DNA from: Naegleria gruberi
Lineage: Eukaryota
Reading direction: 5' to 3' (one strand)
Assembly: GCA_000004985.1 (NCBI GenBank)
Contig: GG738886.1
Length of the DNA: 64,000 bases
The notes below the pieces were generated by a model. That model had not been told where the DNA came from. It saw nothing but the letters and a program-made list of their open reading frames with translations, and did no database searches. Shown piece by piece: positions 1,684 to 31,400 of this stretch (within the stretch, counting starts at the first letter, position 1; each line of letters begins with the position of its first letter). The position numbers and the translations under genes were made by a program.

Positions 1684-1800
1684 GGAAAATTTTATTTAAG
1701 CTTTTTCTTAATGATGTAAGCCTTCCTAGCTCAGTTGGCAGTAGCGCTGTCCTAGTAAGACAGAGGTCTTGGGTTCGATTCCCAAGGGAGGCATTCTTTT
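1684..1800 (+). repeat. Direct repeat copy 1 (about 117 bp): tRNA-Thr gene plus about 36 bp of 5' flank and about 8 bp of 3' flank
   Basis: The 5' flank ggaaaattttatttaagctttttcttaatgatgtaa, the tRNA, and the 3' flank ttctttta are nearly identical to 3877..3993. Confidence 0.6.
1720..1793 (+). tRNA. tRNA-Thr (anticodon AGU)
   Basis: Cloverleaf: acceptor GCCTTCC/GGGAGGC, anticodon stem CTGTC/GACAG with loop CTAGTAA (U33, AGT, A37), T-arm TTGGG-TTCGATT-CCCAA, discriminator A. TTCTTTT follows the 3' end. Confidence 0.85.
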
Positions 1801-2269: not shown

Positions 2270-3874
2270 ATGAAGAAGAGCAGCAGCCACAATTTGATAA
2301 CCCTCTCACAACTCGAACAACACGACGGAGTGAAAAATTCACAACTCTGGATACTTCTCTATGGGAAAGTGTACGATATTACTGAATTTGCTGATAAACA
2401 TCCTGGTGGTCGTGAAATGATAGAAACAGCTTGTGCAAGAGATTCTACTGCACTGTTTGAATCGTATCATTTGTCATCCCATTCGATTAGTAGAATATTC
2501 TTGAGAGATGATGGGAATAATAATAATCAGTCGATGATTAAGTATATTGGTGAATTTGATGAAGAAACAAAGCAAGAAGATGTAAATGATTCCAAGATCA
2601 AGTTTAATTTCACAGATTACAAGATTGCAAAGAAACAAGAAAATAGAACGATGAATATTTATGAAATTTTGAAAGAGCAAATAAGAAATGACTTGTTTAT
2701 TCCTGCCCTTACAAGACAAGATTTTAATCTTAACATTAGAAGGGTTTCTCTCTTGAGATTGTTGAATGCAATCTTCATTTTCTCAGGGTTGTTAGCTTGT
2801 CAGCTTTTATCTCAATACTTGACAGGATTACACCTGTCACTTGCCATTATTCTAGCATTCTTGGGAGGTGTATTTCACCACTTGTCCCTTGTCCACGTTG
2901 CTCATGATGCTGGACATGGAAGTTTCACAGATTTCCCAACCTTGTGGAGAATGATTGGACATGGTTGTTCCTATTTGTTGGGACAATCATTCTATCTTTG
3001 GACCATTAGACATAACATTGCTCACCATGTGTAAGTAGCACTTAACTTTAGCAATTAGATTAACATTTATAGATATACGAATATGAGTGAAATCGATCCA
3101 GATATCAGTATTTATGAAAGAGGTAACGTAAATTCACAAGAAAGATCACTACCTGATAAAAAGTATCCTAAATCAGGAGAGAAAACCTCCACCCCAATCA
3201 AGATTATGTCTGTAACTGGTTCAATTGTATTTTTACCAATCATGTATAGTTTAGTTATTGTTTATATGCAACTTAAGGATTTGGCACATTATTGGAGGAG
3301 ACGTGTTAGTGATGGTGTTGGATTTGCATCCCCAACTTGGAGCTTTACAACATTCCATTTCTATGCAAGTAAGATTGTCTTTGTAATGTACCGATTAATC
3401 TTGCCAATGGTCCTCTTTTACTCTACAGATGGTCATTTCGGTAGAAATGCATTAGAATCTGTACTGATATTTAGTGTTACTGAAGTTGTAGCAGGTCTGT
3501 TATTTGGTTTCTTTTCTCAAATCAATCACATCTCTGAGAAGTGTAAATTCAGTCACTTGAAGGAAGGAGCCCTCAACAATAGAGACGAATTGGATTGGGC
3601 AACTATCCAAATCACAACAAGTGTCGACTATTGTCATGACAGTTATTTGTGGACCTATCTATCTGGGTTTTTGAACCACCAAGTTATTCATCACTTATTT
3701 CCAAGTATTAACCCATGGCTATATCCAAAGATTGTTCCAATCGTTAAGAAAGTCTGTAAGGAGAATAACATTGAATATACCATTTACAACAACTTTTGGG
3801 ATGCTATGACTGCTCATGTGAGACAAGTGACCAGTTTTGTGGATACCAAGAAGCTTCTTGCTGAAATAAATTAA
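2270..3874 (+). CDS. Front-end fatty acid desaturase with N-terminal cytochrome b5 domain (delta5/delta6-type); exons 2270..3030 and 3073..3874, 42-nt intron 3031..3072 (GTAAGT..ATAG)
   Basis: Cyt-b5 HPGG heme motif (EFADKHPGGREM) at the N-terminus. His boxes HDAGHGSF and HNIAHH lie in exon 1. After the in-frame intron, exon 2 carries the third box QVIHHLFP (QxxHH, diagnostic of front-end desaturases). The ATG at 2270 is preceded by caaaaaaaaa. Confidence 0.8.
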
Positions 3875-3876
3875 TT

Positions 3877-3993
3877 GGAAAATTTTATTTAAGCATTTTC
3901 TTAATAATGTGAGCCTTCCTAGCTCAGTTGGCAGTAGCGCTGTCCTAGTAAGACAGAGGTCTTGGGTTCGATTCCCAAGGGAGGCATTCTTTT
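3877..3993 (+). repeat. Direct repeat copy 2 (tRNA-Thr plus flanks), starts 2 bp after the desaturase stop codon
   Basis: See 1684..1800; the same 5' flank ggaaaattttatttaagcattttcttaataatgtga and 3' flank ttctttta. Confidence 0.6.
3913..3986 (+). tRNA. tRNA-Thr (anticodon AGU), second identical copy
   Basis: 74/74 nt identical to 1720..1793. Confidence 0.85.
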
Positions 3994-8072: not shown

Positions 8073-8143
8073 GGGGGCGAGGGGGAATCGAACCCCCGGC
8101 CACAGCTTTGGAGGCTGCGATGTTACCATTACACCACCGCCCC
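8073..8143 (-). tRNA. tRNA-Trp (anticodon CCA)
   Basis: Reverse complement: GGGGCGG TG GTGTAATGGTAACATC GCAGC-CTCCAAA-GCTGT ... GGGGGTTCGATTCCCCC TCGCCCC C. The CUCCAAA anticodon loop is identical to eukaryotic tRNA-Trp. 71 nt. A TTTT run lies just 3' on the minus strand. Confidence 0.8.
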
Positions 8144-8205
8144 TGTACATTTGAATTCTCAAACACAATGATTTTGACCTATCCTTAACTCGTAAAAATT
8201 GTAGT

Positions 8206-9210
8206 TTATTGGATGTTCAAACCAGTTGCCAAAATTGTTTGTTGTCTCAAACTCACAACAACTCGAAGCAATTTAGTTGCCAATTTCGAAGGTTGCTTTC
8301 CACTTGCTTTCTTAGTTTCCTTTACAAGAATTAACAAATCGACTGGAAGAGCAGCAAAAGGAATCACTCCCTTAATCACCAAACTAGCCAACGACAAGGA
8401 AGCACAATAATCATTGGTCATGAGTCCTGAATTCTTGAAATCCTTCTTTTGATTACCTGTTAAAGATTGAACAAAATTGAAAACATTTACAACACAATTA
8501 TTTCCAATGCTAATCATGCAAGAATCCATTTCTGGATATTTGGATCTTATCACATAGATGTGGGAAATTATTTCATTGACCATTTGTGTGTCCTTTGCTA
8601 ACAATTCTTGAACTTGTTTGGCAGTATTCTTGGCATGTTTCCATTCTTTGAAACTGGCCACTACTGCTTCTGTTGTTCCTGATCCAATAACTAGTAATCC
8701 AGTTCCTGTAGCCACTAGAGAACCTCCAAATGTGAGTGGACTTCCCAATAATCCTCCAACTTGGAATTATTTTCATCAAATTCGATTGAGTATGTTGTAA
8801 AACTTACGAATAAGTGCTGCCCCAACAAGATTGGTAGCCGTTCCGTTTGCTTTCTTCTTTGCAGCTTCTTGTTGTTGATAATCTAATGCATGAATCATTT
8901 GTTCTAGTACTGAGATTAATCCCAATCTTTCTTGAATCCATTCTTGAGTTTTTCTTTCAACATTTGAAAGTTGTTCACTCAATAGACTATTGGTTTGATC
9001 TGGTAAGTCATATTTCACAAAAGATTGGTTGTTTGGAGTGAAAGATGGCAATGGCTCCTTTTCATATGGATTAATAACTTGCTCCCTCAACGAGTTAAAT
9101 GATGGATAGCAAACATTACCAGATAAGAGATGTGAACTCTCATTGATTAATGACGAAAGTTCTGGTGCAGGGGTTGAATCTGCATTAGTTTCAGAGTATG
9201 GATAATACAT
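8206..9210 (-). CDS. ApoL-like (apolipoprotein-L family-like) membrane-hairpin protein A; exons 9210..8808 and 8759..8206, 48-nt intron 8760..8807 (GTAAGT..CCAAG)
   Basis: Splicing restores [71 protein letters not shown]. This is collinear with the paralogue at 11765..13090 and resembles the ApoL hydrophobic hairpin plus flanking amphipathic helices (recalled ApoL1: GTTIANVVSGSL...APFTEGGSLVLL...DYGKKWW). The later ALPVDLLILVKETKKASGKQPSKLATKL resembles ApoL1 VSFFLVLDVVYLVYESKHLHEGAKSETAEEL. Confidence 0.6.
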
Positions 9211-9860
9211 GTTGTTGAAATTGATTGGCTGGTTTTTTTCTTTTTGCTATCAGTAATTGTTTGGCTGATTTGTTTTTATAGTAAGCAAGGCAACAACATA
9301 TTTTAGAATCTTAATGGAAAAGGAATATGGAATGGAGTGTAAAAATTAAAGTGCTACGAAGTGTGAAATCACCCAAAAAGGAACAAGTGCTCGCTTTTCC
9401 TGTTAATTGCAATCAACCTTTGCCGACTCGCAACAGAAAGAGATTGTAAGTGGTCCATTTTGTTTAAGGAATTCAATGATTTTCAAAGTTTCCAATTTCT
9501 GTCTTTCCAAATAGAGCTTTTCAACCATTCTCAAAATTGACAATCCATTACAATTCAATAATGAATGGAAACTTGAAAATTACAATTTTTATAAATTTTA
9601 ACTTAATTTTTGACTTATTTCAATATTCACATAAAGAAAATTCGCTTTATAATATCTCCAAATACAATCCCTTACTATGGATATTTAGGTTCATGTACTT
9701 GTTTGGCGCCAAATCACTACAAATTTTTTGTCTTTATTTAAAAAAAAATTGTGCTGGCTGTTGAGGAACATTCACGTGAAAAGCTTCCCTGAAAACGTTT
9801 TATTCTTTGTACCCACCAAGTTATTTGTATATAAATAATCGGAAAATTCTTAGAGAGGAG

Positions 9861-10043
9861 ATGGCAGATTTTACAACTGAGGAATATGTTGCTGTTGCAC
9901 TGTGTTCAGCCTTTGTGATTTCTTTGATATTGATCGTAATTTCTATTGTGGTTGGAGTAAAACTTCATGCCAGAAGAAAACTGCATCAAATTCGAGCACT
10001 TGTTGATGAACAGCAGGAATCGGAAGAAACAAAACAAAATTAA
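9861..10043 (+). CDS. Small single-pass membrane protein (60 aa; MADFTTEEYVAVALCSAFVISLILIVISIVVGVKLHARRK...)
   Basis: ATG at 9861 in good context, one clear TM helix, and a charged tail. Short, so weak. Confidence 0.3.
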   Translation: MADFTTEEYVAVALCSAFVISLILIVISIVVGVKLHARRKLHQIRALVDEQQESEETKQN

Positions 10044-10420
10044 CAAGCTAACAAATCGGAATTTTTGAATACTAGCTATAACAACGTTCTGAATTTCTTG
10101 CACTCAACATAATGAGATAGAGTTTACTATACAAAATATATTGTAGTCAAGCAAGAAAGAAAATACTAAGGAATTGAATCAATTGATCATCTCTTCGCAC
10201 ATTGAACCAAAAGAATTAACCTAAATTCGCCGAACAAATAACAATTATGGCTACCAGTTCTTGTAAGGATTGCAGAAAAAAACTTTAAAAAAATAACACA
10301 ACTTGTTCTTCTGATCTTTAGACAGGCTAATCATCAAAACGTCGTTGTCATCTAGGAAATAACACACTTTGTTATACATCATCATCCTCATCTACTTAAT
10401 ATTATCAACAAAATACAATA

Positions 10421-10924
10421 ATGGCTGAAGACGGAAGAATTCAAACAGTTTGGGTTATGATTTTATTGTTCACTTCTTGTTGTTTCTTTACATTTGTTGC
10501 TATCCTTTTCGGCATTATTGCTTCTGCAATTACCGACCCTAACGAAATGTCTAATGCCATGTCTTGTACAGTGCTGAAACCACAAGTGAATTGTAAAACA
10601 TGTGAAGGAACCCATACTTGTTGCGAAGCTATTGTAAAAGTTGCCCCTGGAACACTCTTTGCTAATGTAACCAATTTCCAACCAATAAGAACAACTGAAG
10701 AATTTAGTAGTGAATCAACCTATTATTCATATGCCGCCAATTCTACAGTAACTTGTTATGTAGGAATTGACCCAGAAAGTGAAGAGGCTCACTATGCCAA
10801 GTATGATGGACCAAAAGTTGAATTGAAGACTGTTGCTATCGTCACTGGTTGCATTGCCATTTGTTATACTGCTGGTTTGATTTTGGCCCCATTCTTCTCC
10901 AAATCTCTTCAACAAACTCACTGA
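10421..10924 (+). CDS. Cys-rich two-TM hypothetical protein, 167 aa
   Basis: The ATG at 10421 is preceded by aaaatacaata. N-terminal TM, a Cys cluster (CKTCEGTHTCCEA), and a C-terminal TM. Confidence 0.45.
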   Translation: MAEDGRIQTVWVMILLFTSCCFFTFVAILFGIIASAITDPNEMSNAMSCTVLKPQVNCKTCEGTHTCCEAIVKVAPGTLFANVTNFQPIRTTEEFSSESTYYSYAANSTVTCYVGIDPESEEAHYAKYDGPKVELKTVAIVTGCIAICYTAGLILAPFFSKSLQQTH

Positions 10925-11258
10925 GAAAACTAATTGTACATTTTGCTAATAATACTTCGTACAAACCTATTATCCAAAAATTCTATTGAATGTTATTTGG
11001 AATTTTAAATTGCAATCATGTGAAATATTTCCGAAATCAAAAATAAAAAAATAAAAAATTAATTTTAATTCAATTTGGCAATACTGCTATTTGTATGTGG
11101 TATGGGGCAGAGAACAGTGAATAATAATGGCAACTCAACTCTTACCATCAAAGTTGAACTCTAGCATCAGTAAAGTTACTGGGCTATTTCTAGCTCTTTT
11201 TATGGTAAGTTCAATAAACTTGTTCTAATACTATTTTCTAGTGAAAATTACCAAGAAA

Positions 11259-11329
11259 TCGGGTGTGGTATAGTGGTAGCATTCCAGACTGTCACTCTGG
11301 CGACCCGGGTTCAATTCCCGGCACTCGAG
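11259..11329 (+). tRNA. tRNA-Asp (anticodon GUC)
   Basis: TCGGGTG acceptor pairs with CACTCGA. Anticodon stem CCAGA/TCTGG with loop CTGTCAC (GTC). T-arm CCGGG-TTCAATT-CCCGG. Discriminator G. A T5 run follows 6 nt downstream. Confidence 0.8.
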
Positions 11330-11538
11330 ATTAATTTTTGACTCTATCTCCACTACTTAAGTTTTAATTTTTTCCTCATATGAATACTGGCATGTAATCA
11401 CCTATTTTACAATTTTCAAATCTTCATCTCCTAATTCCATAGAAAAAATAGTCAAAGGTTAAACTCTTTAATTTTTCTTTCAAAAAATAATGGATGAATT
11501 TTTTGGCGTATATCATTGGTACTGATTATTCTTGAAAA

Positions 11539-11545
11539 GGAAAAA
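11539..11545 (-). terminator. Pol III T-run (TTTTTCC on the minus strand) immediately 3' of the 5S-like gene
   Basis: The plus-strand ggaaaaa abuts the gene's 3' end. Confidence 0.4.
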
Positions 11546-11645
11546 GACTACAGCACCACAGGTTCCCAAGTTGTCTCCAACCTCAGTACTGATGTGGCTC
11601 GACGATGCTTAACTTCTCAAACGGGATGAGGTGCATTATGTAGCC
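11546..11645 (-). rRNA. 5S rRNA-like gene (100 nt; variant with shortened helix II / loop B region)
   Basis: Reverse complement: GGCTACATAATGCACCTCATCCCGTTTGAGAAGTTAAGCATCGTCGAGCCACATCAGTACTGAGGTTGGAGACAACTTGGGAACCTGTGGTGCTGTAGTC. It matches conserved 5S blocks (CATCCCGT, GAAGTTAAGC, AGTACT..GGAGAC, GGGAAyA, GTGCTGTAG). About 20 nt are missing relative to a canonical 120-nt 5S between the 5' GGCTAC and CATCCCG. Confidence 0.55.
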
Positions 11646-11764
11646 AATCATTATTTTAAAATCTTAATATTGAATAAGAAATGATTTGGATATTGTTTTA
11701 AATTTCTTTGAATCTGGTACTTGTAATTAAAATCTGGTATGATTGTGGATAAAACTACAATTTA

Positions 11765-13090
11765 TTAAGGTAAGAAAGTACCAGTTGCTTTTGTTGTTTG
11801 TGCCTTGATTGATTCCAAGATTGGTGTTAATTTGGCAGCCAATTTAGAAGGTTCCTTTCCATTTGCCTTTTTAGATTCTTCAACCAAAATAACCATATCG
11901 ACAGGAATGGAGATGATTGGTACCATACCTTTAATCATTAAACTGGTCAAACTCATAATACCTGTAGCACCATTTGTCAATCCACCACGACTATCCAATC
12001 CTTGGTGTCTATGACCAATAAGGGCATCAACAAATTGTACAACTCCAATAGTGTTTGAGCCAACAGAAATGGTACGAGTATCAATGTATGGATCAGTAAC
12101 TCTGTACTCGTAAATCTTTTTAATCATATCATTGACATATTGAGTATCCTTTGCCAAGAGTTCTTGAATTGCCTTTGCAGATTTCTTGGCATGTTTCCAT
12201 TCGACAACTGAGGCAACAACACTTGTGGTTGTACCAGCTCCAACACATCCAAGACCAGCTCCTGTAGCCAAAAGCGAACCTCCAAGTGTAAAAGGAGCTG
12301 CTACGATACCTCCCACAATCAATGAAGCACCAACAATGTTTGTGGCAGTACCACCAACTTTGGCCTTTGCTGTTTTCTTTTGTTTCTTATCCAATGCACA
12401 GATCATATCTTCAAGCATTTTAATGATTTCCATACGTTTCTTGAGCCATTCTCTGGCAGATTCTTCAACAGCAACCAATCTCATTGCTTGTATCATGTTG
12501 TTATTAATTGGTGGAGGAACAACAGTGGTTGTTTGTTGCACTACAGAAACAGGTGTCATTGGTGAGACAGTCTTTTCAACAGTTGTGGTTGTTTGTTGTA
12601 CAAATTGACCAGTTGGAGTCATTGGTTGGCCGAATTGAGATTGCATCATTTGAGGTTGTTGTTCCATGTATTGAGGATTCATACTTGGTTGTTGTGGATA
12701 GCCATGTTGCATCATTTGAGGTTGACCATATTGTGGAGGTTGTTGGTACATTCCTTGCTGTTGTGGATAACCTTGTTGGTATTGTTGATATTGTGGTTGT
12801 TGCATACCTGGTTGTTGAGGTTGTTGAGGTTGTTGTTGGTATTGTTGTGGTTGCATACCTTGTTGTTGTGGATAGCCTTGTTGTGATTGCATCATTTGAG
12901 GTTGACCATACTGGGATTGTTGCATACCTTGTTGTTGTGGATACATTCCTTGTTGAGGTTGTTGTGGATAACCTTGTTGAGGAGGGTATTGTTGATATTG
13001 TGGTTGTTGGACTCCAGGTTGACCATATTGTGGAGGTTGTTGCATACCTGGTTGAGGAGTTTGTGGAGAGTATTGTTGTGGTTGGTGCAT
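11765..13090 (-). CDS. ApoL-like protein B with prion-like Q/P-rich N-terminal extension, 441 aa, single exon
   Basis: ATG at 13090 in acaaaacaaaATG context. N-terminal about 165 aa are Q/P/Y/G repeats ([13 protein letters not shown]...). This is followed by [74 protein letters not shown] and [27 protein letters not shown], paralogous to 8206..9210 and ApoL-like. Confidence 0.65.
12600..13085. repeat. Coding low-complexity CAA/CCA(TTG/TGG)-rich repeat encoding the Q/P-rich domain of ApoL-like B
   Basis: Degenerate tandem repeats of ttgttg/tggttg on the plus strand. They generate spurious antisense ORFs (12508..13143 etc.). Confidence 0.6.
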
Positions 13091-13564
13091 TTTGTTTTGT
13101 GTTGAAAAATTATATGACTCAAGTCTGTTATTTAGCCTGTTGATTCGTATGAATTCTTTGGTCCGTTGTAACATTCGGAATGTCATTGTCCAATAAAAAT
13201 ACAATGAGAAAGTGACAGAAACAAGTTGCAAAATACAATTGTGGCAATTCAAATATGATTTGTGTGTTAATTGCCAAAAAGTCGAATTATTGTCTTACGA
13301 AAGGAAACATATGCATGTTACTTGGTTGATTTGATCAAGAAAATTGGCAATTCACATCCAAATGTGATTTGATAACTTGTTTGTGCATTCTAAAAGTATT
13401 CTGTTGTATCAACCAAGTTGCTGTTGTAAAGTCTAACTACAGTCAGAGTTGGTTTTAATTGAAGTTTTCCCATAATCCACGTACAGATTTCTTTTTAATT
13501 GCATATGGCACTTCCAAAGCTCCTCTCAATACTTTCAGAATATCAATTCCCATACTAACAAGTT

Positions 13565-15763: not shown

Positions 15764-16423
15764 TTTATTAGAATGTTGAAGTAAATGTATGTAATGGAAC
15801 GTACCTAAAGCATCGTGATATTGAATGTTTTTTTTCAAAATTACTTTTTAATTTTTCTTTTATTTTTCAAATTTTAAAGTTTAACGGTAAATATGGGAGG
15901 TGCTGAGATTATTTTTGTTGGTAAAACCAAACAACGTTGCAATTCTCTAAAACCGATTCAATCATCATCTTGCTATACAATCACAAAGAACTCAATTCAA
16001 GGTTTAATTCATCATTAATTAAATTGAAATACCAAATGCAAGTTTTGATAGGACTTCCATTCAATGATTTACTGTTTCGACTTGCTATAGTAATCCTATA
16101 TCCCATTAAGGAATTTGGACCCCTCGTTTATCTCTCTTAATCCCATTCGGAAAGCAATCACCAAAACAACCTGAGAAACTAAGCTTTTGATCCTTAAGGA
16201 AAGCCTCAATTTCAAAAAAATTGGTGTAAGAAGAGACAGGGAGAGAATGCGATTCTTTTTGAAAAATCCAAATACTGGATATTATGATAAGGGGGCATCT
16301 ATATGTTTGTCCTTATCGGCCTTATTAGCAAGGTTGTTATCCTTATCATCATTATCTTTATTTTCAACATCAGGATTAATATCCTTAAAAAGTTGTGGTG
16401 ATGAGGAATTTTCTTCTATTAAG

Positions 16424-19400
16424 ATGCTATCATCATCACCGTCATCATTAACAAGTTTAAATAATTCTAATGGGATAAGAACAAGATCAAAGTATCATTC
16501 TTCATCATCCCTTGTACTTTTATTCATCATTATTTCAATGATACTAGTTTCATGTTTCATGTGTGAACCAATTCAGGCCATCTCTTGTAGTGGAATAGAT
16601 TCCAACGACCTCACTGCTTGCTCTGGGATGGGGACTTGTATTCAGGATGAAACATGCCAATGCCTTAACGGATATTCAGGCGCTAATTGTGAGTATGTGG
16701 AGTGTTTTGGAGTTACAAATGAACCTGGTAATGAGGTTTGCTCTCGTCACGGGCAGTGTTCATCACCAGACAATTGTCAATGCGATTCTGGGTATTATGG
16801 CTCTACATGTTCCATCACAACTTGTTTTGAGAAGTGGAGTAACTTGTCGAATAGCAACAACATTTGCTCTGGGCATGGTACTTGTTCATCATTGGACGTT
16901 TGTGAATGTAATGCTGGATACTTTGGTAGCGAATGTGAAAAGGATCTTTTCGCTGGGTACAAACTAATTAGTATTAGCCCAGTAGTGATAGCAAAAAATT
17001 CACCTGACAATGTTGAATTGAAAGCAAGTATTGCCCTTCCTTCAATGGTTCTATCCTCTGCCTACTCACACGATGGTTCACAACCTTTACCATTTGTTGT
17101 TTCCAACTCTACAACTTCTATTGTTATTACAGATACGGTAAATGATGCTTTTGGTCAATTGTTAGTTCAGGAAGCAGATAGAAAAGCAGGTGAACTTTAC
17201 AATCTTCCATGTGATTTTAACATTTCCAATCCCGACCAAGAACTCAATAGTTTGACCATCATTAGAAATGGTGGAGTCTATTGTTTTCCAAATGGTGTAA
17301 CTATAAGAGGACACACATTTATTATTGTCGGTACAGAAACAGTCCTTTTCAAATCTCCTTTTGTATATTATTATGGAGCTTCCTTTTACTATCTGGAATG
17401 TGCCTCCTATAGGAACGTTTTCTGGTTAACCTATGACCAAGGAGATAATGGAAACTTCTTTTCTGGAGATATTCATGGAACTGTTATTGGAATTTCTCCT
17501 TATCATGGAATTCAACTTTACGATAACTTGGTGGGGGCTGTATGGTACACTGGTGGAACAGATATGATTCTATTCGATGTGAATATTTTACCACCAATAA
17601 CCTTCAATTCAAATGAAAGTTTTAGTCGAGATGATTGCATGGAAACAAGTTGTTATGGAATTTCATTCCGATTGAATAATACTTGCTTTGGAAGAGGTCA
17701 TTGTGTGAAGAATGATACTTGTTTGTGCAATACGGATTCATACGGAAGTAATTGTTTAATTTCAATTTGTAATGGTGTCTACGGAAATGAAACCAATGTA
17801 TGTAGTGGTCATGGTGAATGCCAAAGTAAGGACAGTTGTGAGTGCGAAAGTGGTTATTATGGAAATTGGTGTGAATTGACCACATGTTTTGGAGTCCAGA
17901 ATGACCAGCCGAATACTTGTAATGGGCATGGATTGTGTTCCAAATTGGATACTTGTGAATGTGCTTCTGGTTTTGGATATGGTGGTTCAAGTTGTGAAAT
18001 TCCAATCTGTAATGGAACTATGGCTAATGAAAGTAGTGTTTGTCTATCAAGAGGTCATTGTGTCCAACCAAATATGTGTAGTTGCCAATCAAGTTATTCA
18101 GGGTCAAACTGTGAAATTGCTAATTGTTTTGGAATTATTTCAAATGACAGCTCAGTTTGTTCTGGTCATGGGTCTTGTAATTCTGTAGATACTTGCACTT
18201 GTTCCATTGAATACTACGGAGCCGATTGCTCACAATTTGATTGTTATGGCATTCAATCAGTGAATAGTTCTGTTTGTTATGGAAGAGGACAATGTATTAA
18301 TGTTAATACTTGTTCATGTTCACAAGGATACTATGGCAATGAATGTGAAATCTCCATGTGTGATGGTATTTTGGGCAATTCCTCCCAAGTTTGTTCTAGT
18401 TATGGACAATGCAAGGATACGGATGTGTGTGATTGCCAATTGGGCTATTTTGGTGTGTTTTGTAATGAAACAACATGTAATAGTATAGCAATGAATGACT
18501 CAACAGTATGTAATGGACAGGGAACTTGTTGGCCATTGGACACATGTGTTTGCTCCAATGGATATGATGGCTCTAATTGTCAAAATCCTATTTGCTTTGG
18601 AATTGTTTCCACTAATACCTCTGTTTGTGGAGGTCATGGAGTTTGTTCGCAACCAAATATTTGTCAATGCAACCAGGGATATTACGGATCCCAATGTGAA
18701 ATAGTCACCTGTTCTGGTATCATGTCAAATGGATCAACAGTGTGTTCAGGACAAGGGCAGTGTTCTGATATGGACATATGCCAATGCAACAACCATTACT
18801 ATGGATCTAATTGTGAAAAGTTTGATTGCTTTGGTGTATCCTCTCTCTTAAACACCTCATGCTCTGGTCATGGTACATGTCTTGATTACAATACTTGCCA
18901 ATGTTACTCTGATTATTATGGAAATAATTGTGATGTTACCAAATGTTATGGTATTTTCAGTAATTCATCCAATGTTTGTTCATCTAAGGGAAGTTGCCAT
19001 GTACGAGATACTTGTATCTGTTCGAATAATTACCACGGTTCTTATTGTAACATAACAAGTTGTAATGGAGTTTATTCTAATGATGCTTCAGTTTGTTCCG
19101 GTCATGGTTCATGTATTGGGTACGACACTTGTCAATGTTTGAGCGATTATTCTGGAAGTAATTGTCAAGGAGAAATAGTTGACCCATTTGCTGGATTTAG
19201 AATTATTTCAGATTCTTCAGTTTCAATTTCTATTGATTATTTCCTGACAGATTGGCAACCAGTTTTGCAATCCTATACTCGTTACTATGCCTCAAGTTTA
19301 CTTCTTAAAAGTATTTCCTATTTGGATTCAAATATTCAATATCTTCCACATTCGAGTGCAGTTATTCTAAACAGCACAAGTGCACAGGGCATCAATATTG

Positions 19401-22400
19401 TCAACAAGATGAAAACCATCAAGTCCCAGTTATTGGCTTCATTAACCTGCACTAAAACTTACACAAACACTAACTCTCCAAATACTTTTATAATCAAACA
19501 TGGAGGTGTAATTTGTTTCACAGGAGGAATGACATTCGGGCCAGAAAGAACTATTATCATTGTGGGAACAGAGCCTGTCATATTCAAACTCCCATCCTTG
19601 CAGTATAGTGCTCTTAATATTGTTTTTTTGGAATGTGCCTCATATAGAAACTTTTTCTGGATTTTGGATTCAAATAGTTTTATTAAGGGAGCAGATAAAA
19701 CAAAGAATTATCAACCACCAATTCATGGAACATTTATTCAACTCTCTGGAACTATTTCTTTGAGAGGTTACCTTGCAGGTAGTGTATGTGCTTCGAACAT
19801 CAATACTCTTCTCCACGAAGTCACATTTTATGATCCAACCACTTTTGACCCTTTCCAAAGTGTCACTTCACAATGTAATTACACCCTCTGTTACAACATT
19901 CTATCAAATAATCAATCAGTGTGTTCAGGTAAAGGTAATTGTTCTGATTACAACACTTGTGTTTGTAATACGGATAGTTATGGATCTGATTGTTCTTTAT
20001 TTAAGTGTAACGGAATTTTGAGTTCAAACTCAACTTTTGTTTGTAATGGAAGAGGTAAATGTGTAGGGCCAGATGTCTGTTCCTGTAATCCAGGTTATTA
20101 TGGAGATTTTTGTGAGCTGACCACATGTAATGGAATTGAAAATACCTCGCCTCTTGTTTGTAATGGAAGAGGTGCCTGTAATCATTTCAATAGCTGTTCC
20201 TGTAGCTCTACATTTGGGTATGGTGGATCAGATTGCGATATTCCAATTTGCTATCAAAAACTTGCAACCAATCGTTTAGTTTGTAGCTCAAGAGGTGATT
20301 GCTTGGGACCAAATGTTTGTAATTGTACCGAAACTTATCTTGGTGATAATTGTCAACTGACCACTTGTGCTGATATACTTTCAAACTCTTCTCTTGTTTG
20401 TTCAGGCTTTGGATCATGTGTTGGCTATAACAATTGCACCTGTCATACAGGTTTCTATGGAGAAACTTGTGCAGAATATGATTGTTTCGGAGTTAATAAG
20501 AATAATCCAAATGTTTGCTCTTCAAAAGGCGAATGTATTACTGTTAATAACTGCACATGTCAAGATGGCTTTTTGGGTAATAATTGTTCCTACACTACTT
20601 GCTTTGGAGTAAGAAGTGATTCGCCTACAGTTTGTAATTCGAAAGGTTCCTGTAGAGCCAAAGATGTTTGTGAATGTTGGAATGGATATTTCGGAAGTAA
20701 TTGTACTCTGACAAGTTGTGGAGGGATCTATTCAAATGATAGCTCTGTGTGTAATGGACATGGTTCTTGTTGGCCAGCGGAAACCTGCACTTGTTTATCT
20801 CAATATGGATATACAGGTCAATTGTGTGAAATTCCAATTTGTTATACCATAGCAGCTAGTGATCCTTTAACCTGTTCTTCTCATGGCTCCTGTGTTGGTG
20901 TCAATACATGTGAGTGCCAAGCAAATTATACTGGATCCAAGTGTCAAGTTACATCATGTCAAGGAATTCTATCAAACGGCTCACTTGTTTGTTCTGGGCA
21001 TGGTTCATGTATTGAACATGATAATTGTACATGCCTAGCTGGTTACTTTGATACCGCCTGTAATCAATTCACATGTAATGGAACCAACTCCCAAGACAGC
21101 TCAGTTTGCTCTGGAAAAGGAAGTTGCGATTCATATAATAATTGTTCTTGTCAAGCGGGCTATTATGGACCTAATTGTGAAAAGACAATGTGTAATAACA
21201 TTTTGAGTGATAATCCATCTGTGTGTACATCTCGTGGTAATTGTATTGCCCCAGAAGTTTGCAGTTGTAATGAGACTTATTTTGGTACTAATTGTGAGTT
21301 GACTACTTGCAATGGAACTGTTTCAAATAGCAGCTCGGTATGTTCAGGATCAGGAGTTTGTTGGCCATTCGATACCTGCACTTGTTACTCTGACTTGGTC
21401 AGAGAATTCGAAGGTCAATGGTGTGAAAAACGTTTGTGGGATCCTTTCGCTGGATATCGAATGGTATCTCACAATGGTTTAGTTTACCATTTTGATGATA
21501 ACAACAATTTCTACACTCCTGATATTCATACCAATACTAGATATTATCGTTCAAGTATGATTTTAGATATACTTACAAAGATAACACCTACACTCAATTA
21601 CACATCTGATAATGGAGCTCACATTGATAGTGTTAATACTCCCAAAGCATCAGCCTTGGCTGCACTTATGAAAAAGAAAGGTAATTCCATGTGGACACTT
21701 CCATGTACTAAAACAGTTAACAATTCAAGTGATTTGCCATGGATTAGTAAGAGTGAAATTATGATTCGTCACGGAGGTGTTTTCTGTTTCAATATTGAAG
21801 CTTCTTTTCACAACAATATAACCATTATCATAGTTGGAGCTGAACCTGTTGTTATGAAAGTTCCTTCAATTCAATACTCTGCAGTCAACTTTGTATTTGC
21901 AGAATGTGCTTCTTATAGAAATTTGTTTTGGTTTATCACAAGTTATAATCCAAGTTTCATTCAAGGAGGAAATAGAGGGACTGGATATGAGCCTCCAATT
22001 TATGGAACTTTCTTCCCAACCTCAGGTGGTTCCTTCCAACTTGCTGGTCCTTTTGCAGGAAGTGTTTGGGTAACCGGTAATGCATGGACTGTTTTTATTG
22101 ATGTTACTGTTTATCCACCATTGTCAACTGATCCATATGAACCAACAGTTGGTCAATTTTGTAATTATACTCAATGTTTCAATGTTAAATCTAATTTGAA
22201 TACTACATGTTCCGGTAGAGGTCAGTGCATTGATTATAATACATGTGTTTGCAATGCCGATGCTTATGGAGTTGATTGTTCAATCTCCAAGTGTAATGGC
22301 ACATTTAGTAATGTATCAACTGTTTGTAATGGACATGGTTCATGTATCGCTAAAGATACTTGCCAATGTAATACAGGATACTATGGAGAATGGTGTCAAT

Positions 22401-25400
22401 ATACAACATGTGGAGGAATTGAAAGCACTTCACCATTGACTTGTAGAGAAAGAGGTACTTGTATTGCCTATAATCAATGTTCTTGTAATGTCACCAAAGG
22501 ATACAATGGTAATGACTGTGAAATTCCTTATTGTAACAACATTTTGGGAAACACTTCAACTGTTTGCAGTGCTCATGGTTCTTGTGAATTGCCAAACACG
22601 TGCAATTGTTCAGCAAACTATTTTGGAACATTTTGCCAATATACCACTTGTGCAGGCATTGAAACATATAATTCATCAGTTTGTATTGGTAGAGGTCAAT
22701 GTACACTTTACAATAATTGTACTTGTAACTCACCTTATTATGGATCCAATTGTGAACAATTCAAGTGTTTTGGAGTGAATAACAACTCTAGTACTGTTTG
22801 TTCTGGAAGAGGTATCTGTACAGATTATAACACCTGTGTTTGTAATGCTGGATATTTAGGATCGAATTGTGAAATTTCATCCTGTTTTGGAATTTTAAGT
22901 AATGTGTCCCTTGTTTGTAAAGCTCATGGAGTTTGTGTAGCTACGAATACTTGTGTCTGTGCTGCTAATTACATGTCCAGTGATTGTTCTGTGACTTCCT
23001 GTTCAGGAATCAATTCAACTTGGTCTTCAGTATGTCATGGAAGAGGTTCATGTTGGCCTTACAATACATGTAATTGTAATGCCAAATTGGGTTACACTGG
23101 AAATGATTGTAATGAGCCAATGTGTGACGGTCTTACAAACTCTGATCCTTATGTTTGTAGCGGAAGAGGAGGTACTTGTGTTTCTCCTAATCTATGTGTC
23201 TGTAACGATCCATCAAAATATTTTGGTAAATTGTGTGAATACACCTATTGTCGAGGTGTTCCAACCAATCTTACTGACACAGCACTCTTCTGTTCTGGAA
23301 ATGGTATTTGTACAGACTATAATTACTGTTATTGTTTTAGTGGATATACAGGAACTGAGTGTGAGTTGGATATGTTTGCAGGTTACAGATTCGTCACCAA
23401 TAAGAATGTTTATGTTTTGAAGAATCAGATTTATTACTTGCCTGCCAATATCGCCATAGGCCCAATGTTGAGTGCTGCTGGGCAGAAGACATACCTTCCT
23501 TACCAACAAGCAGTGAAAACCAATTTGAGAGTTGATGCTACATTGTTGAATGAGCTCCAAATGAGAGCTATGGGTTTAAGGTATAATTTCTTCCCTTGTG
23601 AACATTATATCAAGGACGCTTCAGTATTTGGAAAGAACATAGAATTGAGGGGAGGTGTGTACTGCATTCAGAATCCATGGACAATTGATGGACATAACTT
23701 TACCGTAATTGGTAAAAAACGAACCATTTTTACACTTCCACAGCTGATATATAAATCAGCAAAGTTCACCTACTATGAATGTGCATCTTATAGAGATGTA
23801 ATATTTTATGCCGGTGAAACTACTGGCTACAGCAATTTCACAGGACCTATCGATGCAACCATTTTTGTAAATTCACCAGGTGCAGCAGATTACTACGTGA
23901 ACGGTGATATTAATGGAGCAATCTATATATTTGGAAAACTTGGATCTAACGATGCTCCACCTACTGGTACTGTCTACACTACAGATATGAAATTTATTGC
24001 ACCATACACATTTGATCCAGCTGTTAGATACATTGAATCCAAGTGTAATTATTTCACATGTTTTGGAATTGGCTCTAATATCAATACTACTTGTTCTGGA
24101 AAAGGAAAATGCATAGGCATTGATACTTGCTCATGTATTTCTGGGGCGTATGGGCCTGATTGTTCTCTCAGAATGTGTAATGGAACTTTAGGAAACTTTT
24201 CCAATGTTTGCAGTGGTCATGGTTCATGTATTTCCACTGATATTTGTCAATGTAATGCAGGATTTTATGGGCAATGGTGCCAATACACAAAGTGTTATGG
24301 ATTAGAAAATACTTCTCCAACTGTTTGTTCAGGAAGAGGTTCTTGCTTGTCTGAAAATAATTGTATTTGTAATTCTACTTATGGATACGAAGGTTCACAA
24401 TGTGAAACTCCAATTTGTGGTGGACAATTGGGTATTTGTGCTAGTTCAAGCAGAGGAAATTGTACAGCTCCTGACACTTGCTCATGTTTGGATCATTATA
24501 GTGGTCAATTTTGCCAATGGACTACTTGTAATAGCGTACCTTCTAATTCATCAAGTGTTTGTTCTGGAAGAGGAATATGTGCTGCATATAATACTTGTCA
24601 ATGTAAAGCAGGATATATTGGATCGATCTGTGAAAAGGATGTCTTTGCTGGATACAAATTAATTAGTAACAAGGCAGTTCTTTTAGCAAAGAATTCAAGA
24701 GCTAGCTCTGTGCTGGCAGCAAGTATTGCCCTTCCTTCAATGACAATTAGACCACCAACATTTTTAAATCCAGATAAGGTCTATCCATATGTTGCAAGTG
24801 GTAAGTCTGTAATTACAAAGCCAACCGATTCCTACTATCAAACTTTAATGACCGAATTATCAAAGAAATTCGATGAGCTCATGTCCGCTCCTTGTGACTA
24901 TGTAATTTCAAAACCAGATACTGAAATGGGTCAGAAAATTCTCATTGAGCATGGTGGCGTCTATTGTTTCCAGAATGGTTGGAACATTAATGGTCAAAAG
25001 TTTACAATTGTTGGAACTGAGCCAGTTATTTTCAAAGCTCCATATATCAAGTATTCTGGAGCTAACTTTGTATATTTGAAGTGTGCTTCATATAGAAACG
25101 TGTTTTGGGTCACTCAATACTACAACTTGACTGGCAGAGTAAATTGGGTTAACAGTAATTCATTTTCTGGAACAGTTCATGGCACAATAGTTGCTAGATA
25201 TGGGTATGATTATTTAGTTTCCGATGATATACAAGGAGCTATTTGGTTTTATACTCAAGAAGATGGATATATCACTTTGAAAGATGCTAAACTTACAACA
25301 CCTCCAACATTTGATCCTTACATGCCATATGTTACTGGATCTTGTGATACTTATACTTGTTTTGGTATTGATCCAACTTCGAATATGAGTTGCTCAGGTA

Positions 25401-28400
25401 GAGGTGTCTGTAAAGATTACAATACATGTACATGTCAAGATGATTCCTATGGTATTGATTGTTCCATTTCTAAATGTTATGGAATTTTTGGAAATGTGTC
25501 AATTGTTTGTTCCTCTCATGGTAATTGTACATCAAAGGATACATGTACATGTAGTGAAGGATACTTTGGAGACTTGTGTCAATACACTTCATGTGCTGGC
25601 ATTCCAAATAACTCTACAAATGTCTGTAACCAGAGAGGTGTTTGTAATATTTACAATTCTTGCACTTGTAACACAACTTTGGGTTATGATGGATCGAATT
25701 GTCATGTTCCAATATGTAATCATCTAGTAGGAACATGTACAGATCTATTCAGAGGTAACTGTACTGCTCCTAATGCATGTTCATGTGAAAATCATTATTA
25801 TGGGCCTTGGTGTGAAAAGACAACTTGTGGTGGATTTGAGTCAACTAATACACAATCTGTTTGTAATGGAAGGGGTAATTGTACAGCTTATGAAAAGTGT
25901 ACCTGTTTACATGGATATGCAGGAGCATTTTGTGAAGAGTATAGTTGTTTTGGAGTTGTGAGAACTCTTCCGTCAACTTGCTCTGGAAGAGGAGCTTGTT
26001 CTTCAATTGACCAATGTGATTGTAGCGCAAATTATTATGGATCTAATTGTGAAATTAGCAAGTGTAATGGTAAATTTGGAAATGAGTCTACAGTGTGTAG
26101 TTCTAATGGTCAGTGTATTGAGACAAATATTTGTAATTGTTCAGAGCATTATTATGGAAATTGGTGCGAAAAGACGACTTGTTTTGGAGTTGCTTCCAAT
26201 GAGTCAAATGTTTGTTCACATAGAGGACAATGTAAAGCATTCAATACTTGCCAATGCAATCAAAATTACTTTGGAGATAATTGCGAGTTGACTACTTGTA
26301 ATAATCTTGCTTCAAACTCTGGTTTGGCTTGCAATTTGGTTGGCAATTGTACAGATTACAATACATGTGTTTGTCCTTATGGATATACTGGTTCATGGTG
26401 TGAACAGACTACTTGCTTTGGTGTAGCCACAAGTTCTCCAAGTGTTTGTAATGGACATGGTAATTGTACAACTATGGATATGTGTAGTTGTGATCCTAAA
26501 TATGGTTATGGTGGAAGTAATTGTAACATTACAACATGTGATGGAGAATTGTCTACCTCTTCTCAGGTCTGTAACTCACATGGTACATGTATTGGACCAA
26601 ATCAATGTCAATGTGCTCCACATTATATTGGTGACAATTGTCAAGTGACAACTTGTTTTGGAATTCTGTACAATGACTCTAGTGTTTGCTCAGGAAAGGG
26701 TTCTTGTGATGGATTCGATAACTGTACATGTGAACTTGGTTATTCTGGAGCAGAATGCGACCAGTACACATGCAGTGGAGTTTTCAATTCAAATCCCTTA
26801 GTTTGTTTCGGTAGAGGAAACTGTACTGAATATGATATCTGTGTTTGTGAAGCAAATGCCTTTGATTTTGATTGTTCTGGTGTTTCTTGTAATGGATTTA
26901 TCAATGCAGATCCAATGGCTTGTTCTTCACATGGTTCATGTACCCAAAATCAATAGTGTAATTGCTCTGAAAATTATCATGGTGAATGGTGTGAGCTCAC
27001 AACTTGTAATGGAATTGATTCGAATAGTACTGAAGCATGTTCTGGAAGAGGAAGATGTGTAGATTATAATAGTTGTGTCTGTTCGAATGGATACTATGGG
27101 GATGACTGTCAGGATTACAATTGTTATGGTATTTCACATTTTTCAAATTTGACATGTTCCGGATATGGTAATTGTTCCGATATCGACACATGTGAATGTT
27201 TTGAAGATTCTATTGGTTTAGATTGTTCCGTCAACGTTTGCAATGGTCTTCCTATGAATTCCTCATTAGTTTGTTCAGGACTAGGCAGTTGCACTCGACC
27301 AAATTATTGCAATTGTTCAGATAACTATTTTGGAAGTAATTGTGAATGGACCACATGTTATTCCATCGCATCATTCTCTCCATCCACATGTTCTGGAAGA
27401 GGAAATTGCTCTGATTTTGATAAGTGTATATGTAATTCTGATACATTTGGTTCCGATTGCTCTCTCTTCAAATGCAACCACACCCTTGGCAATGAAACTC
27501 AAGTTTGTAGTGGACGAGGTTCATGTATTGGCACTGATGAGTGCAATTGCACTGAGAATTATCACGGAGAGTTTTGTGAATTTACTGAATGTTTCTCTCA
27601 ACTTTCTAATGAAAGTTCAGTTTGCTCTGGAAAAGGAAAATGCATTGAGTTCAATAATTGTTCATGCCAAGATGGATATTTCGATCAAGATTGTTCTCAA
27701 TTCCAATGTAATGATACCTTCAGCAATGAAACCACAGTTTGCTCCTCAAGAGGTTTTTGCATTGATTCGAACAAGTGCAATTGCTCAGAAAATTACTTTG
27801 GACTGAATTGTGAATTGAGCATTTGCTTTACAATTCTTTCTAATGACAGCAGAGTTTGTTCTAGAAGAGGAATTTGTGTTGATTATCAAAACTGCTCATG
27901 TTATGATGGATTTTATGGTGAAAGTTGTGAGTTTGCTGTAAGTGCAGTGAACAATCAATCAAATTCCACTCAATTGAATAATCAAACTATTGATTCCAGT
28001 AATGTAACCATGAATAATAATTCATCGGTGGTTTTTAACAATACTGATAACAGTACAAATACTGATAATAGTAGTGTTGTGGTCACTAATCACACAATTT
28101 CAGAAGACAATACAACACGTTCTAATTCAAATGGAACTGTTTATAATAACAATAGTACAGACCTTTCTAATGAAACAATTTCAAATAATGGAACAGTTTC
28201 TGCTAACGCAAATGTTACTATCCCTGACAATTCTACTTCTTCCACTAATCAAACTGTTTCTCCAAGTACTGATTCATCAAATGGAACTGTTTCCAATAAT
28301 ACTGTAAATGCAACAGCTTCTGATAATACTACCACTGATAATTCCAACATTACAATTTCGGATAATACCACTTCACCTGGATCCAATAATCAAACTATTT

Positions 28401-31400
28401 CTCCAAGTGTTGATTCATCAAATGGAACGATTTCAAATAACACTAATCCTTCGGTAGTTTCGAACAGCTCAACTGTTTCAAACTCTTCTTTTACTAACGG
28501 AACAGTTTCCAACAGCACAGTCACTTCAAATAGTAGCACAATTACTTATAATACCACAATTTCATCAAACGAAACAATTTCGGTTAATGTAACAAGCAAC
28601 ACATCAAAAATTACAAATTCAACCTCAATCTTGAACGAAACTGTTCCTGTAATGCCTGAGCCTGATGTTGTGGTTGCTTTGCCGGTTGCAATTATAAAAC
28701 GAATGAGCTCGAACGTGTTCAGCTCATGCGATGATATTAGAGTGGATGGCTCGCAAAGTTTCTCACAAGATTCGACCTATCTTGACTATTATTGGAATTT
28801 ATTGGAAGCAAGCTCTTTGACTAGTTTACAAAGTTTGCCTAATAGTCCAATCATTGTCATTGACTCTACATTGAAGCCAGGACAATATGTTGTTTCACTA
28901 AAAGTTGGAAATGGAAGAAATAGTTCAGTGAACTATTCGAAACCTTTCACCAAGTCAGCAAATCCACTTCCAAAGATTTATATTGCTAATTCTTTGATTG
29001 AAAAGTATGGAAATCAATTCCCAGTAACCATCAAGAAAGTTATCACAGAATCAACTTGCCAAAAGGAAAAATCAGTAATTAGTTGGAGTCAATTAAGTGG
29101 ACCAACAGTTAAATACTCAATTGACAGTTTCAGTAATCTTGCTATTGCCTCATTGACTACCTATGGTTTCCATACTTACATCTTCCAAGTTTCAGCTCAT
29201 TACCCTTCAAATCCATTAGAAAGAGTTTCTGCCAATGTAACACTTGTTACAAAATCTCCTGAATTGCAACTTGAATTATTGACAACTGATGCAAATTCTA
29301 ATTACACAACTATTGTAATTGGATACACAGATCCAGAGAGTGCTTATAATACTCTTTCTGAGGAATGGAAATGGACTTGTTTGAATAATACGAATCCAAG
29401 TTTAATTTCCTTCTTGGAATTGATTTCTAAAAACAAGCAAACTGAAGTTAGATTTGATGGTTCATCACTATTTCGTCAAAACATACCTCGCTCTATTGAA
29501 CTATCTTTAAGAATTTCCAAGTCTGATAGAACAATCTCCAAGTCAATTATAGTTTACTTTGGATTGGTTCCACCTATTGTAAATATTATTTCAGTAGAAC
29601 CAAGCACTTTGTACGTTCTTCCTGGAGAACCTCTCAGTATTCAGACATTAGTCACCAAAGGAAATGTTAATGTTACATTGAATGGACAAGTTGTTGAAGT
29701 ATCCGATCAACAGCCAACCTTGGATGTTGACACTAAACTATTAGAACAAGGTTCTGAAAATACAATTACAATCACATCGACTGATCCAGTGACTGGAATG
29801 TCTAGCTCTTCAAGCTATACTTTCAAAGTTGCTACCTATCCGAAACCATGTGCTTGTTTCATTTCTCCTTTAAGTGGAATTGCATTAGAAAGCGATTTTG
29901 AATTCTATTGTACGAATTGTAAAAATTCAGAAAATAATATTGACTATCGATATGGATTTATAGATGACAGATCCGAAACAAGAATTCTATTATTCGATTC
30001 TGGTGAAATTTATGCTTCCAAGTTGCCATCTCCATTTTCTGGAAATACTGTCAAATGTTTCTTTGATATTGTCGATACAGAGACAGGTGCTTTTACAACA
30101 GTTTACAAAAATGTCACTATAGAAAAACCTCTCGTTACAAAAGTCGAACAAGTTCAAGGACTAGTCGAATCATGGACTATTGTGGGATCCAACTATTTCA
30201 GTAATGGAGATTTCAGTAAGAGTATTTATCAATGTGCTTCAACTTCAAGAACTGATTCAGTTTTATTGAGACAGATATTAGGAAATGAATATTTAGAAAG
30301 ATCAGAAAGTATTGAATGTGAGAATGGTGTTGATATTTCAGGAGTGTGTAAATGTCATGATGGATATATTGGTAAACATTGTGATAAGGCGATTAGTGAC
30401 TTTTCTAATATTCAAGGTACTAAATTGCAAGTACTCAGAGAAATGGTGACCATTGCCAATAGCACTGGTGAAATGAATAATCAATATTTGTCATTGCTGT
30501 CATTTGCCATTGATTCGATACTTGTCAATTATCAATATTTAGATACAAATACTATATCTGAATCAATGTATACTTTGAATATGTTTTTGGAATATTCCTT
30601 ATCTGATGAAAGTTTGAGATTACCAACCGGGGTTGATAAGTTATTAGAATCTAGTCAATATTCAACATTTAATTACATTACTGATAAGCAATACCTTACT
30701 GATCAAACGTCAAATGCCTTAAAATTATTGAAATCTCTCAAATTGTCATCTCAGTTACAAGCAAGATCTGTTTCCATGTCAAATGCCAAGAGAAACATTA
30801 AGGGATCATTCTTTAGTATAGTTTTGGGTAAGAGCTTGTTAGCTGATCATCAAAATAATATTCAAGATCCCCATTCATCTTCGTCCATAAGTATGGAGAA
30901 TGGTTTCTTTGCTTATACTGCAAGATCTAAAGTTTCATCTATCAAAAAGCCATATATTTACATCCTGTCTGTGACTGATGACATTTACTCATTGGGAACT
31001 AAACTCAAAGTTGTGGAAAAGAATAACAATGTTCAAAAGGTTTCAAATTTGGTTTCTCCAATAGTTTCTGTAGATTTTGTGGATGTTGCCACTACCATGA
31101 ATCCAACAAAAATAATTTATTCGATTCCAATTAATTTGAATGGATCAACATTTGAATTGAGAAGAGGAACTTTTGATTTATCAGTCAAGACACTGGACCA
31201 GTATTGTAAAAACTTTGATGAAGGTTCTATTAAAGTTCTTTCAGACTGTACCTTAATTTCATTGACTGCAACACATGCCAAATGTCAATGCTCCAAATTT
31301 ACAAATGTATTTGTTATTGAAACAACGACCATTTCAACTTATTCCTACACCTACTTGGCAGCTATTGGTTTCTCTCTTGTAGCTGTCTGTTCCATTGGAA

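Follow-up and report, generated by a model that had tools for sequence, protein, structure and literature searches.

Tandem apolipoprotein L paralogues of Naegleria gruberi as probable membrane-inserting proteins

Do two neighbouring genes of the free-living amoeba Naegleria gruberi encode genuine members of the apolipoprotein L (ApoL) family, and, if so, how might their products act? The question is raised by a 64,000-nucleotide stretch of contig GG738886.1 (assembly GCA_000004985.1), the whole of which is referred to here as the window. It carries gene 1 (9210..8206) and gene 2 (13090..11765), both intact, arranged in tandem and encoded on the minus strand. An initial annotation of this DNA likened both products to vertebrate ApoL and noted genes transcribed by RNA polymerase III (Pol III) immediately downstream of each. 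We consider it probable that the pair represents two tandem, anciently diverged ApoL paralogues which act by membrane insertion, and that their Pol III neighbours are ordinary.

Family membership, paralogy and protein anatomy

The Pfam ApoL profile (PF05461; length 298, gathering threshold 25.9 bits), which the initial annotation had proposed as the check, was matched by the gene 2 product above threshold (39.0 bits, E 8.2e-10). The gene 1 product reached 15.4 bits and does not pass alone, yet it is an unambiguous paralogue of gene 2. The direct match of gene 2 is limited to profile positions 66-172 and is centred on the hydrophobic hairpin. When 1.84 billion cluster representatives were searched with a profile built from eight Naegleria-type cores (A2), 1041 matched at E ≤ 1e-3 and 122 at E ≤ 1e-10, and many matches spanned profile positions 6-240. 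Among those with a name were proteins of the heterolobosean Acrasis kona, of the starfish Acanthaster and Asterias, and of a mole, a catfish and the axolotl. Patiria, the clam Mercenaria, a frog 'apolipoprotein L3-like' protein and a sardine 'apolipoprotein L domain-containing protein 1-like' protein came from a second search, which was word-indexed. A shark 'apolipoprotein L3-like' protein was also among the closest homologues (E 4e-8). Bridging relatives scored 43-89 bits against PF05461 over positions 61-296 of 298. Furthermore, an 11-sequence alignment (A3) was collinear from end to end, with a shared turn, Gly-rich arms and a C-terminal motif. In the turn, (P/F)FTxGxSL, the T, G and S are invariant across 24 sequences. 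The C-terminal motif PxDxxxLVxxSKxLxxKxPSxLAxKI aligns in A3 with the shark, axolotl, starfish and Acrasis members, and in the shark protein it reads VVWDFYSAVSDAKDLNEGSKTEIAKKI. Public databases already hold a precomputed PF05461 assignment for the listed homologues from N. gruberi, N. fowleri and N. lovaniensis, with the exception of P0164. The resemblance to ApoL was thus borne out by the Pfam score, by the precomputed assignments and by bridging relatives that match nearly the whole profile. Because A3 is collinear, the motifs are shared and the bridging proteins match Pfam ApoL, the membership of the window genes, with end-to-end collinearity, can be regarded as secure on these comparisons and not as a product of composition.

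The two gene products share 121 of 245 aligned residues (49%, E 3e-78 by BLASTP), which confirms the collinear core described earlier for both genes, and they are clearly paralogues, with a similarity far beyond chance. Across the eight Naegleria-type sequences 58 columns are invariant, which indicates purifying selection. The closest named proteins come from N. gruberi (67% identity) and from N. lovaniensis and N. fowleri (about 50%), and the Naegleria orthologues and paralogues as a whole are 48-67% identical over the core; examples, all hypothetical proteins, are FDP41_001341, FDP41_005037, FDP41_005038, C9374_008068, C9374_005332 and C9374_002482. A neighbour-joining tree unites gene 2 with the N. 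gruberi protein P0001 (100% bootstrap). Gene 1 is a long-branch copy whose position has only 54% bootstrap, with an intron and without the Q-rich N-terminus, and no clear orthologue of it was present among the Naegleria homologues in the tree. The duplication behind the window pair is old, as judged from the low identity of the products (49%) and from the tree, in which gene 2 joins its N. gruberi orthologue and not gene 1. It also fits an old duplication that neither DNA similarity nor flanking repeats were found around the two genes outside their coding cores. No third ApoL copy was detected in the window by tblastn. According to the same tree, the fowleri/lovaniensis lineage has three genes and acquired them through its own duplications. 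N. fowleri has a tandem ApoL-like pair as well, FDP41_005037 and FDP41_005038 (VFQX01000043.1; locus L004, 10001..12727), which arose independently of the window pair, and the nr entry P0006 resembles a chimera of these two. A comparison of gene order in related species, also proposed in the initial annotation, was made by tblastn of the window open reading frames (ORFs); the ApoL genes were matched, but they were the only genes common to the window and the N. fowleri and N. lovaniensis loci, and a conserved neighbourhood is absent.

The window has a G+C content of about 34% and short spliceosomal introns, and long ORFs cover 70% of it. Gene 1 encodes 318 residues in two exons, as obtained from the ORF list and splice reconstruction. 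Exon 1 (8808..9210) holds codons 1-134 and the first base of codon 135, and encodes a short N-terminal region that has no Q-rich tract, followed by the first long core helix and the start of the hairpin. The intron (8807..8760; 48 nucleotides, GTAAGT...AG) lies inside the hairpin-coding region, and its removal restores both the frame and the collinearity with gene 2. Exon 2 (8206..8759, stop included) encodes the remainder of the hairpin, the EWKHAK helix, the second hydrophobic segment and the motif PVDxxILVxExKKAxGKxPSKLA. Gene 2, the orthologue of P0001, is a single exon of 441 codons with its ATG at 13090 and its stop at 11765..11767, and it begins with MHQPQQ, in agreement with its orthologues in N. 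gruberi and N. lovaniensis. It consists of a low-complexity N-terminus rich in Q, P, Y and M (residues ~1-165), a Thr-rich linker and the ApoL core (residues 194-441). Such an N-terminus, followed by a poly-Thr linker, is present in nearly all Naegleria paralogues and absent from gene 1. The N-terminus of gene 2 (12500..13090, minus strand) is made of imperfect repeats of 9-60 nucleotides, in which a related assembly has a 3-residue indel, and plus-strand ORFs over it (12508..13143 and others) are antisense artefacts of the CAA/CAG-rich sequence. This region presumably resembles the GYPPQQ-type N-termini of annexin VII.

The core of about 245 residues has the same order of elements in both proteins. 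A long amphipathic helix is followed by a hairpin of ~45 residues rich in Gly, Ala, Ser and Thr, with the turn (P/F)(F/L)TxGGSL. Then come a second long amphipathic helix, which starts with the invariant EWKHAK, a variable stretch, the second hydrophobic segment and finally the conserved helix PxDxxxLVxExKKxxGKxPSKLA. By Kyte-Doolittle hydropathy there are only two hydrophobic blocks per protein. The first is the hairpin, at residues 245-296 of gene 2 (12203..12358, turn APFTLGGSL) and residues 121-168 of gene 1 (8659..8850 with the intron, turn SPLTFGGSL). The second is the segment at residues 374-404 of gene 2 (11879..11971) and 251-284 of gene 1, which in gene 2 leads into the C-terminal motif common to vertebrate and starfish ApoL. 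An N-terminal signal-like hydrophobic block was found in neither protein by the same hydropathy analysis; therefore, without a signal peptide, both are made in the cytosol.

Membrane insertion and the main rival function

Knowledge of the ApoL family and of ClyA-type toxins suggests, by analogy, that the Naegleria proteins would insert into membranes and have a pore-forming or permeabilising activity, and the same knowledge bears on where they may act. We propose that a soluble or peripheral helical bundle would shield the hydrophobic segments, and that, when the bundle meets a target membrane, the hairpin would insert, probably together with the second hydrophobic segment. In the inserted state the proteins may form an assembly that conducts ions or disrupts the membrane. 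Since they are made in the cytosol, their probable target is an internal membrane, most plausibly that of a phagosome with ingested bacteria, or else they may act in a stress or cell-death pathway. A bacteria-containing phagosome would be an attractive target, fitting a bacterivorous amoeba. ClyA-family toxins turn their hydrophobic head into a helical hairpin that spans the membrane, and this conversion may serve as a working model for ApoL-type insertion. AlphaFold2 models reached a predicted local distance difference test (pLDDT) score of 58 with 8 sequences and 66 with 24, and long helices were modelled with confidence at core residues 4-54, 95-139 and 223-243. Only the two hydrophobic blocks scored below 50, which would agree with a change of their conformation at the membrane.

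Several observations weigh against action by membrane insertion of both proteins. No helical hairpin is visible in the AlphaFold2 model, in which the two hydrophobic blocks are the low-scoring parts, and fold searches gave generic helical bundles only, or nothing significant. Gene 1 stays below the Pfam cut-off on a long branch, so it could be relaxed or neofunctionalised. Moreover, some vertebrate ApoL proteins are thought to work in membrane trafficking and not as pores.

The main rival starts from this last point. The Naegleria proteins would then be genuine ApoL proteins but not pore-forming or microbicidal ones; they would be monotopic regulators, anchored by the hairpin, of organelle membrane dynamics or trafficking, a role suggested earlier for APOLD1 and for some of the vertebrate APOLs that are intracellular. 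The lack of a signal peptide is in line with such a function. So is the Q/P/Y-rich N-terminus, common to gene 2 and nearly all Naegleria paralogues, which looks like an interaction or condensation region and not like a feature of a toxin. The copy number is also stable at two or three per species; immune effectors typically show large expansions. On the other hand, relatives fused to RING fingers and to a caspase-like Peptidase_C14, and a hairpin motif common to true pore-formers such as MakE of Vibrio cholerae, argue against a non-lytic regulator, if not decisively. We regard this alternative as possible but rather unlikely, and prefer membrane insertion with a permeabilising effect. The fusions are found in Acrasis kona (RING fingers, P0019 and P0020) and on an environmental eukaryote contig (Peptidase_C14, L007 6001..7530), where a second Peptidase_C14 gene is adjacent. 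They hint at cell-death, immunity or ubiquitin-linked contexts.

Pol III genes beside the pair

Did the Pol III genes take part in the duplication? A tRNA-Trp(CCA) gene (8073..8143, minus strand; ARAGORN and Rfam) lies 62 nucleotides beyond the stop codon of gene 1; it is on the same strand and has T-runs downstream. A 5S-rRNA-like gene of 105 nucleotides (11545..11649, minus strand; Rfam, 38.4 versus 38 bits) lies 115 nucleotides past the gene 2 stop and is followed by a T5 run, and a tRNA-Asp(GUC) gene (11259..11329, plus strand; ARAGORN and Rfam) lies on the opposite strand, 435 nucleotides past that stop. The downstream placement described in the initial annotation was therefore confirmed. 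The 5S-like gene is short, with deletions in helices II and III and a weak helix I; it may be a functional 5S rRNA, a variant or a pseudogene.

The initial annotation had gone on to suggest either that the duplicated segment included a Pol III locus, or that the copies were seeded at a hotspot of recombination or insertion which Pol III genes mark. The same-strand position of a Pol III gene 62-115 nucleotides past both stops speaks for such a link, as does the clustering of five of the six Pol III genes of the window in its first 12 kb. With a rough ORF count of about 30 genes, 4 of which have a Pol III gene within 120 nucleotides past the stop, both ApoL genes would be among the 4 by chance in C(4,2)/C(30,2), about 1.4% of cases, and in about 7% within the tRNA-rich first 13 kb. 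This probability was computed after the pattern had been noticed and hence is not persuasive, and the adjacency is weakly non-random at best. Against the link, the RNA genes are of different kinds (tRNA-Trp at one gene, 5S-like and tRNA-Asp at the other), the flanks share no DNA similarity, and the paralogues, at 49% identity, stem from an old duplication. Two unrelated ORFs show the same arrangement, with a tRNA-Thr gene 38 nucleotides past a desaturase gene and a tRNA-Met gene 87 nucleotides past a 641-residue ORF. Placement of Pol III genes 3' of ORFs is thus normal for this genome, because four of the five Pol III loci in the window lie 38-115 nucleotides past some stop codon. Furthermore, in 81 kb at four homologous loci of N. 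fowleri and N. lovaniensis (L002, L004, L005 and L006; five ApoL-like genes, flanks of up to 10 kb per side), no tRNA or any other Rfam match was found. The proposed link is largely refuted and we give it very little credence. The tRNA-Trp, 5S-like and tRNA-Asp genes are judged to be unrelated neighbours in a compact genome, outside the duplicated unit, and they contribute nothing to the significance of the ApoL pair.

Two identical tRNA-Thr(AGU) genes (1720..1793 and 3913..3986, plus strand) bracket the Cyt-b5 and fatty-acid desaturase gene (2270..3874). They share about 45 conserved nucleotides upstream (TTGGAAAATTTTATTTAAGC.TTTTCTTAAT.ATGT.A) and about 12 nucleotides downstream, which could reflect a local duplication of the tRNA gene or, alternatively, a Pol III promoter element conserved upstream of it.

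Bacterial toxins, the reach of the family and other genes of the window

The colicin pore-forming domain is the classical comparison for APOL1, and the initial annotation had called the Naegleria region colicin-like. Profile searches of PDB chain sequences with profile A1 (E up to 10) and profile A3 (E up to 1) returned no colicin among all PDB chain sequences, and this label was not reproduced. The likeness to colicins is one of general design, in which amphipathic helices conceal a hydrophobic helical hairpin; by prediction, the Naegleria core may be an elongated bundle of long helices and not a compact globular domain. What the PDB searches gave were B components of two tripartite alpha-pore-forming toxins of the ClyA family, MakE of V. 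cholerae (6w08; E 0.004 with a Naegleria-only profile and 3.3e-6 with the broad ApoL profile A3) and AhlB of Aeromonas hydrophila (6grj; E 4.8e-4 with A3). By hhalign, MakE was matched at 93% probability over only 51 columns and AhlB at 59%. The hairpin turn of MakE is APFTLGGSL, a nonapeptide identical to that of gene 2. Both B components share with the Naegleria proteins Gly-rich hydrophobic arms flanked by long helices, and the matches are weak but above noise. They differ in that the likeness is limited to ~50-110 residues, partner A or C genes are absent and the fold comparison is non-specific. We take the resemblance to MakE and AhlB as a lead, which may reflect distant homology or convergence on the hairpin solution, with no claim of membership. 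No link between APOL1 and a ClyA-family toxin appeared among the top-ranked literature matches.

These matches raise the alternative that the genes are horizontally acquired bacterial alpha-helical pore-forming toxins, or translocators of SseC/SipB type from type III secretion systems, and that the ApoL match is a mere side effect of the hairpin. In addition to the profile and hhalign matches, it is favoured by a weak Pfam SseC match (PF04888), in which gene 2 scored 15.0 bits against a threshold of 30.2 and gene 1 did not match. A MakE fragment (residues ~202-310) reciprocally matches SseC at 22 bits and ApoL at 17 bits, both below the cut-offs, and NCBI labels a starfish homologue as 'cell invasion protein SipB-like'. 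No Pfam HBL match was found for the window proteins. However, the ApoL matches are much stronger and run from end to end, whereas the bacterial ones are confined to the hairpin and the adjacent helices and stay under the family cut-offs. The named close relatives are eukaryotic, as are both environmental contigs, with actin and 7tm_3 receptor genes as neighbours, the G+C content of the window genes is host-like and one of them has a spliceosomal intron. A bacterial origin of this kind is therefore highly improbable. The least credible alternative of all, that the similarity to ApoL is a compositional artefact of a Gly/Ala-rich hydrophobic stretch, could appeal to the hairpin-centred direct match of gene 2 to Pfam, but the C-terminal ESKKxxGKxPSxLA helix and conserved motifs that are not hydrophobic can be aligned with ApoL of vertebrates and starfish, and the bridging sequences match both profiles at full length.

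The vertebrate family, APOL1-6 and APOLD1, has the same domain by profile score and the same order of helix, hairpin with its APFTxGxSL turn, amphipathic helix and second hydrophobic segment. It also has the same final D...LV..SK.L..G..S..A helix, which together with the second hydrophobic segment corresponds to the membrane-addressing domain of APOL1. APOL2-6 and APOLD1 are likewise without a signal peptide; APOL1 is secreted, unlike the Naegleria pair, in which no C-terminal extension of the APOL1 type was found either, although no test aimed at it was made. The vertebrate and starfish members differ in being only ~20-33% identical to the Naegleria proteins, which have the Q/P/Y-rich N-terminus and Thr linker in place of the vertebrate N-terminal region. 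Their host, too, is a free-living amoeba without lipoprotein particles, unlike the setting of vertebrate ApoL.

An evolutionary study concluded that the APOL family evolved early in vertebrates (PMC8557400). The members described here show that the family is far older than vertebrates. Together with the RING and caspase fusions in other protists, the Naegleria and Acrasis proteins push the origin of ApoL back a very long way. The literature search found no discussion of ApoL-domain proteins in amoebae. The earlier remark that ApoL is little described outside vertebrates is thus fair for the literature but untrue of databases, where PF05461 already tags these proteins. The phyletic breadth of the family is under-appreciated, though automated annotation records it. 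We can also envisage, tentatively and with considerable doubt, that ApoL is an ancient eukaryotic membrane-inserting module, found in Heterolobosea, echinoderms, molluscs and numerous uncultured eukaryotes, which may share ancestry with MakE and AhlB and perhaps with SseC-type proteins, and of which the Naegleria pair would be cell-autonomous pore-forming effectors. If so, the pair could be used against ingested bacteria or in regulated cell death, as a pre-metazoan counterpart of APOL-type immunity. Naegleria and Acrasis, simple organisms that have two or three copies, would be suited to the question whether the ancestral ApoL was a channel, a bactericidal detergent or a membrane-remodelling factor. 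Besides the saposin-like naegleriapores, ApoL would be a further candidate class of membrane-active proteins in the genus Naegleria, including the pathogen N. fowleri.

Among minor observations, the UniRef name 'CtaA' of one Acrasis homologue gave no useful lead in the literature. Two small ORFs between the ApoL genes, on the opposite strand (9807..10043 and 10421..10924, plus strand), have long hydrophobic stretches by eye and gave no match in a Pfam search; the second is present unchanged in a Logan assembly. Further along the window, an ORF of 3569 residues (16247..26956, plus strand) consists nearly entirely of teneurin-type EGF repeats (EGF_TEN, 500 bits), and downstream of it an ORF of 1556 residues with EGF and REJ domains (27254..31924, plus strand) completes a very large surface-protein pair.

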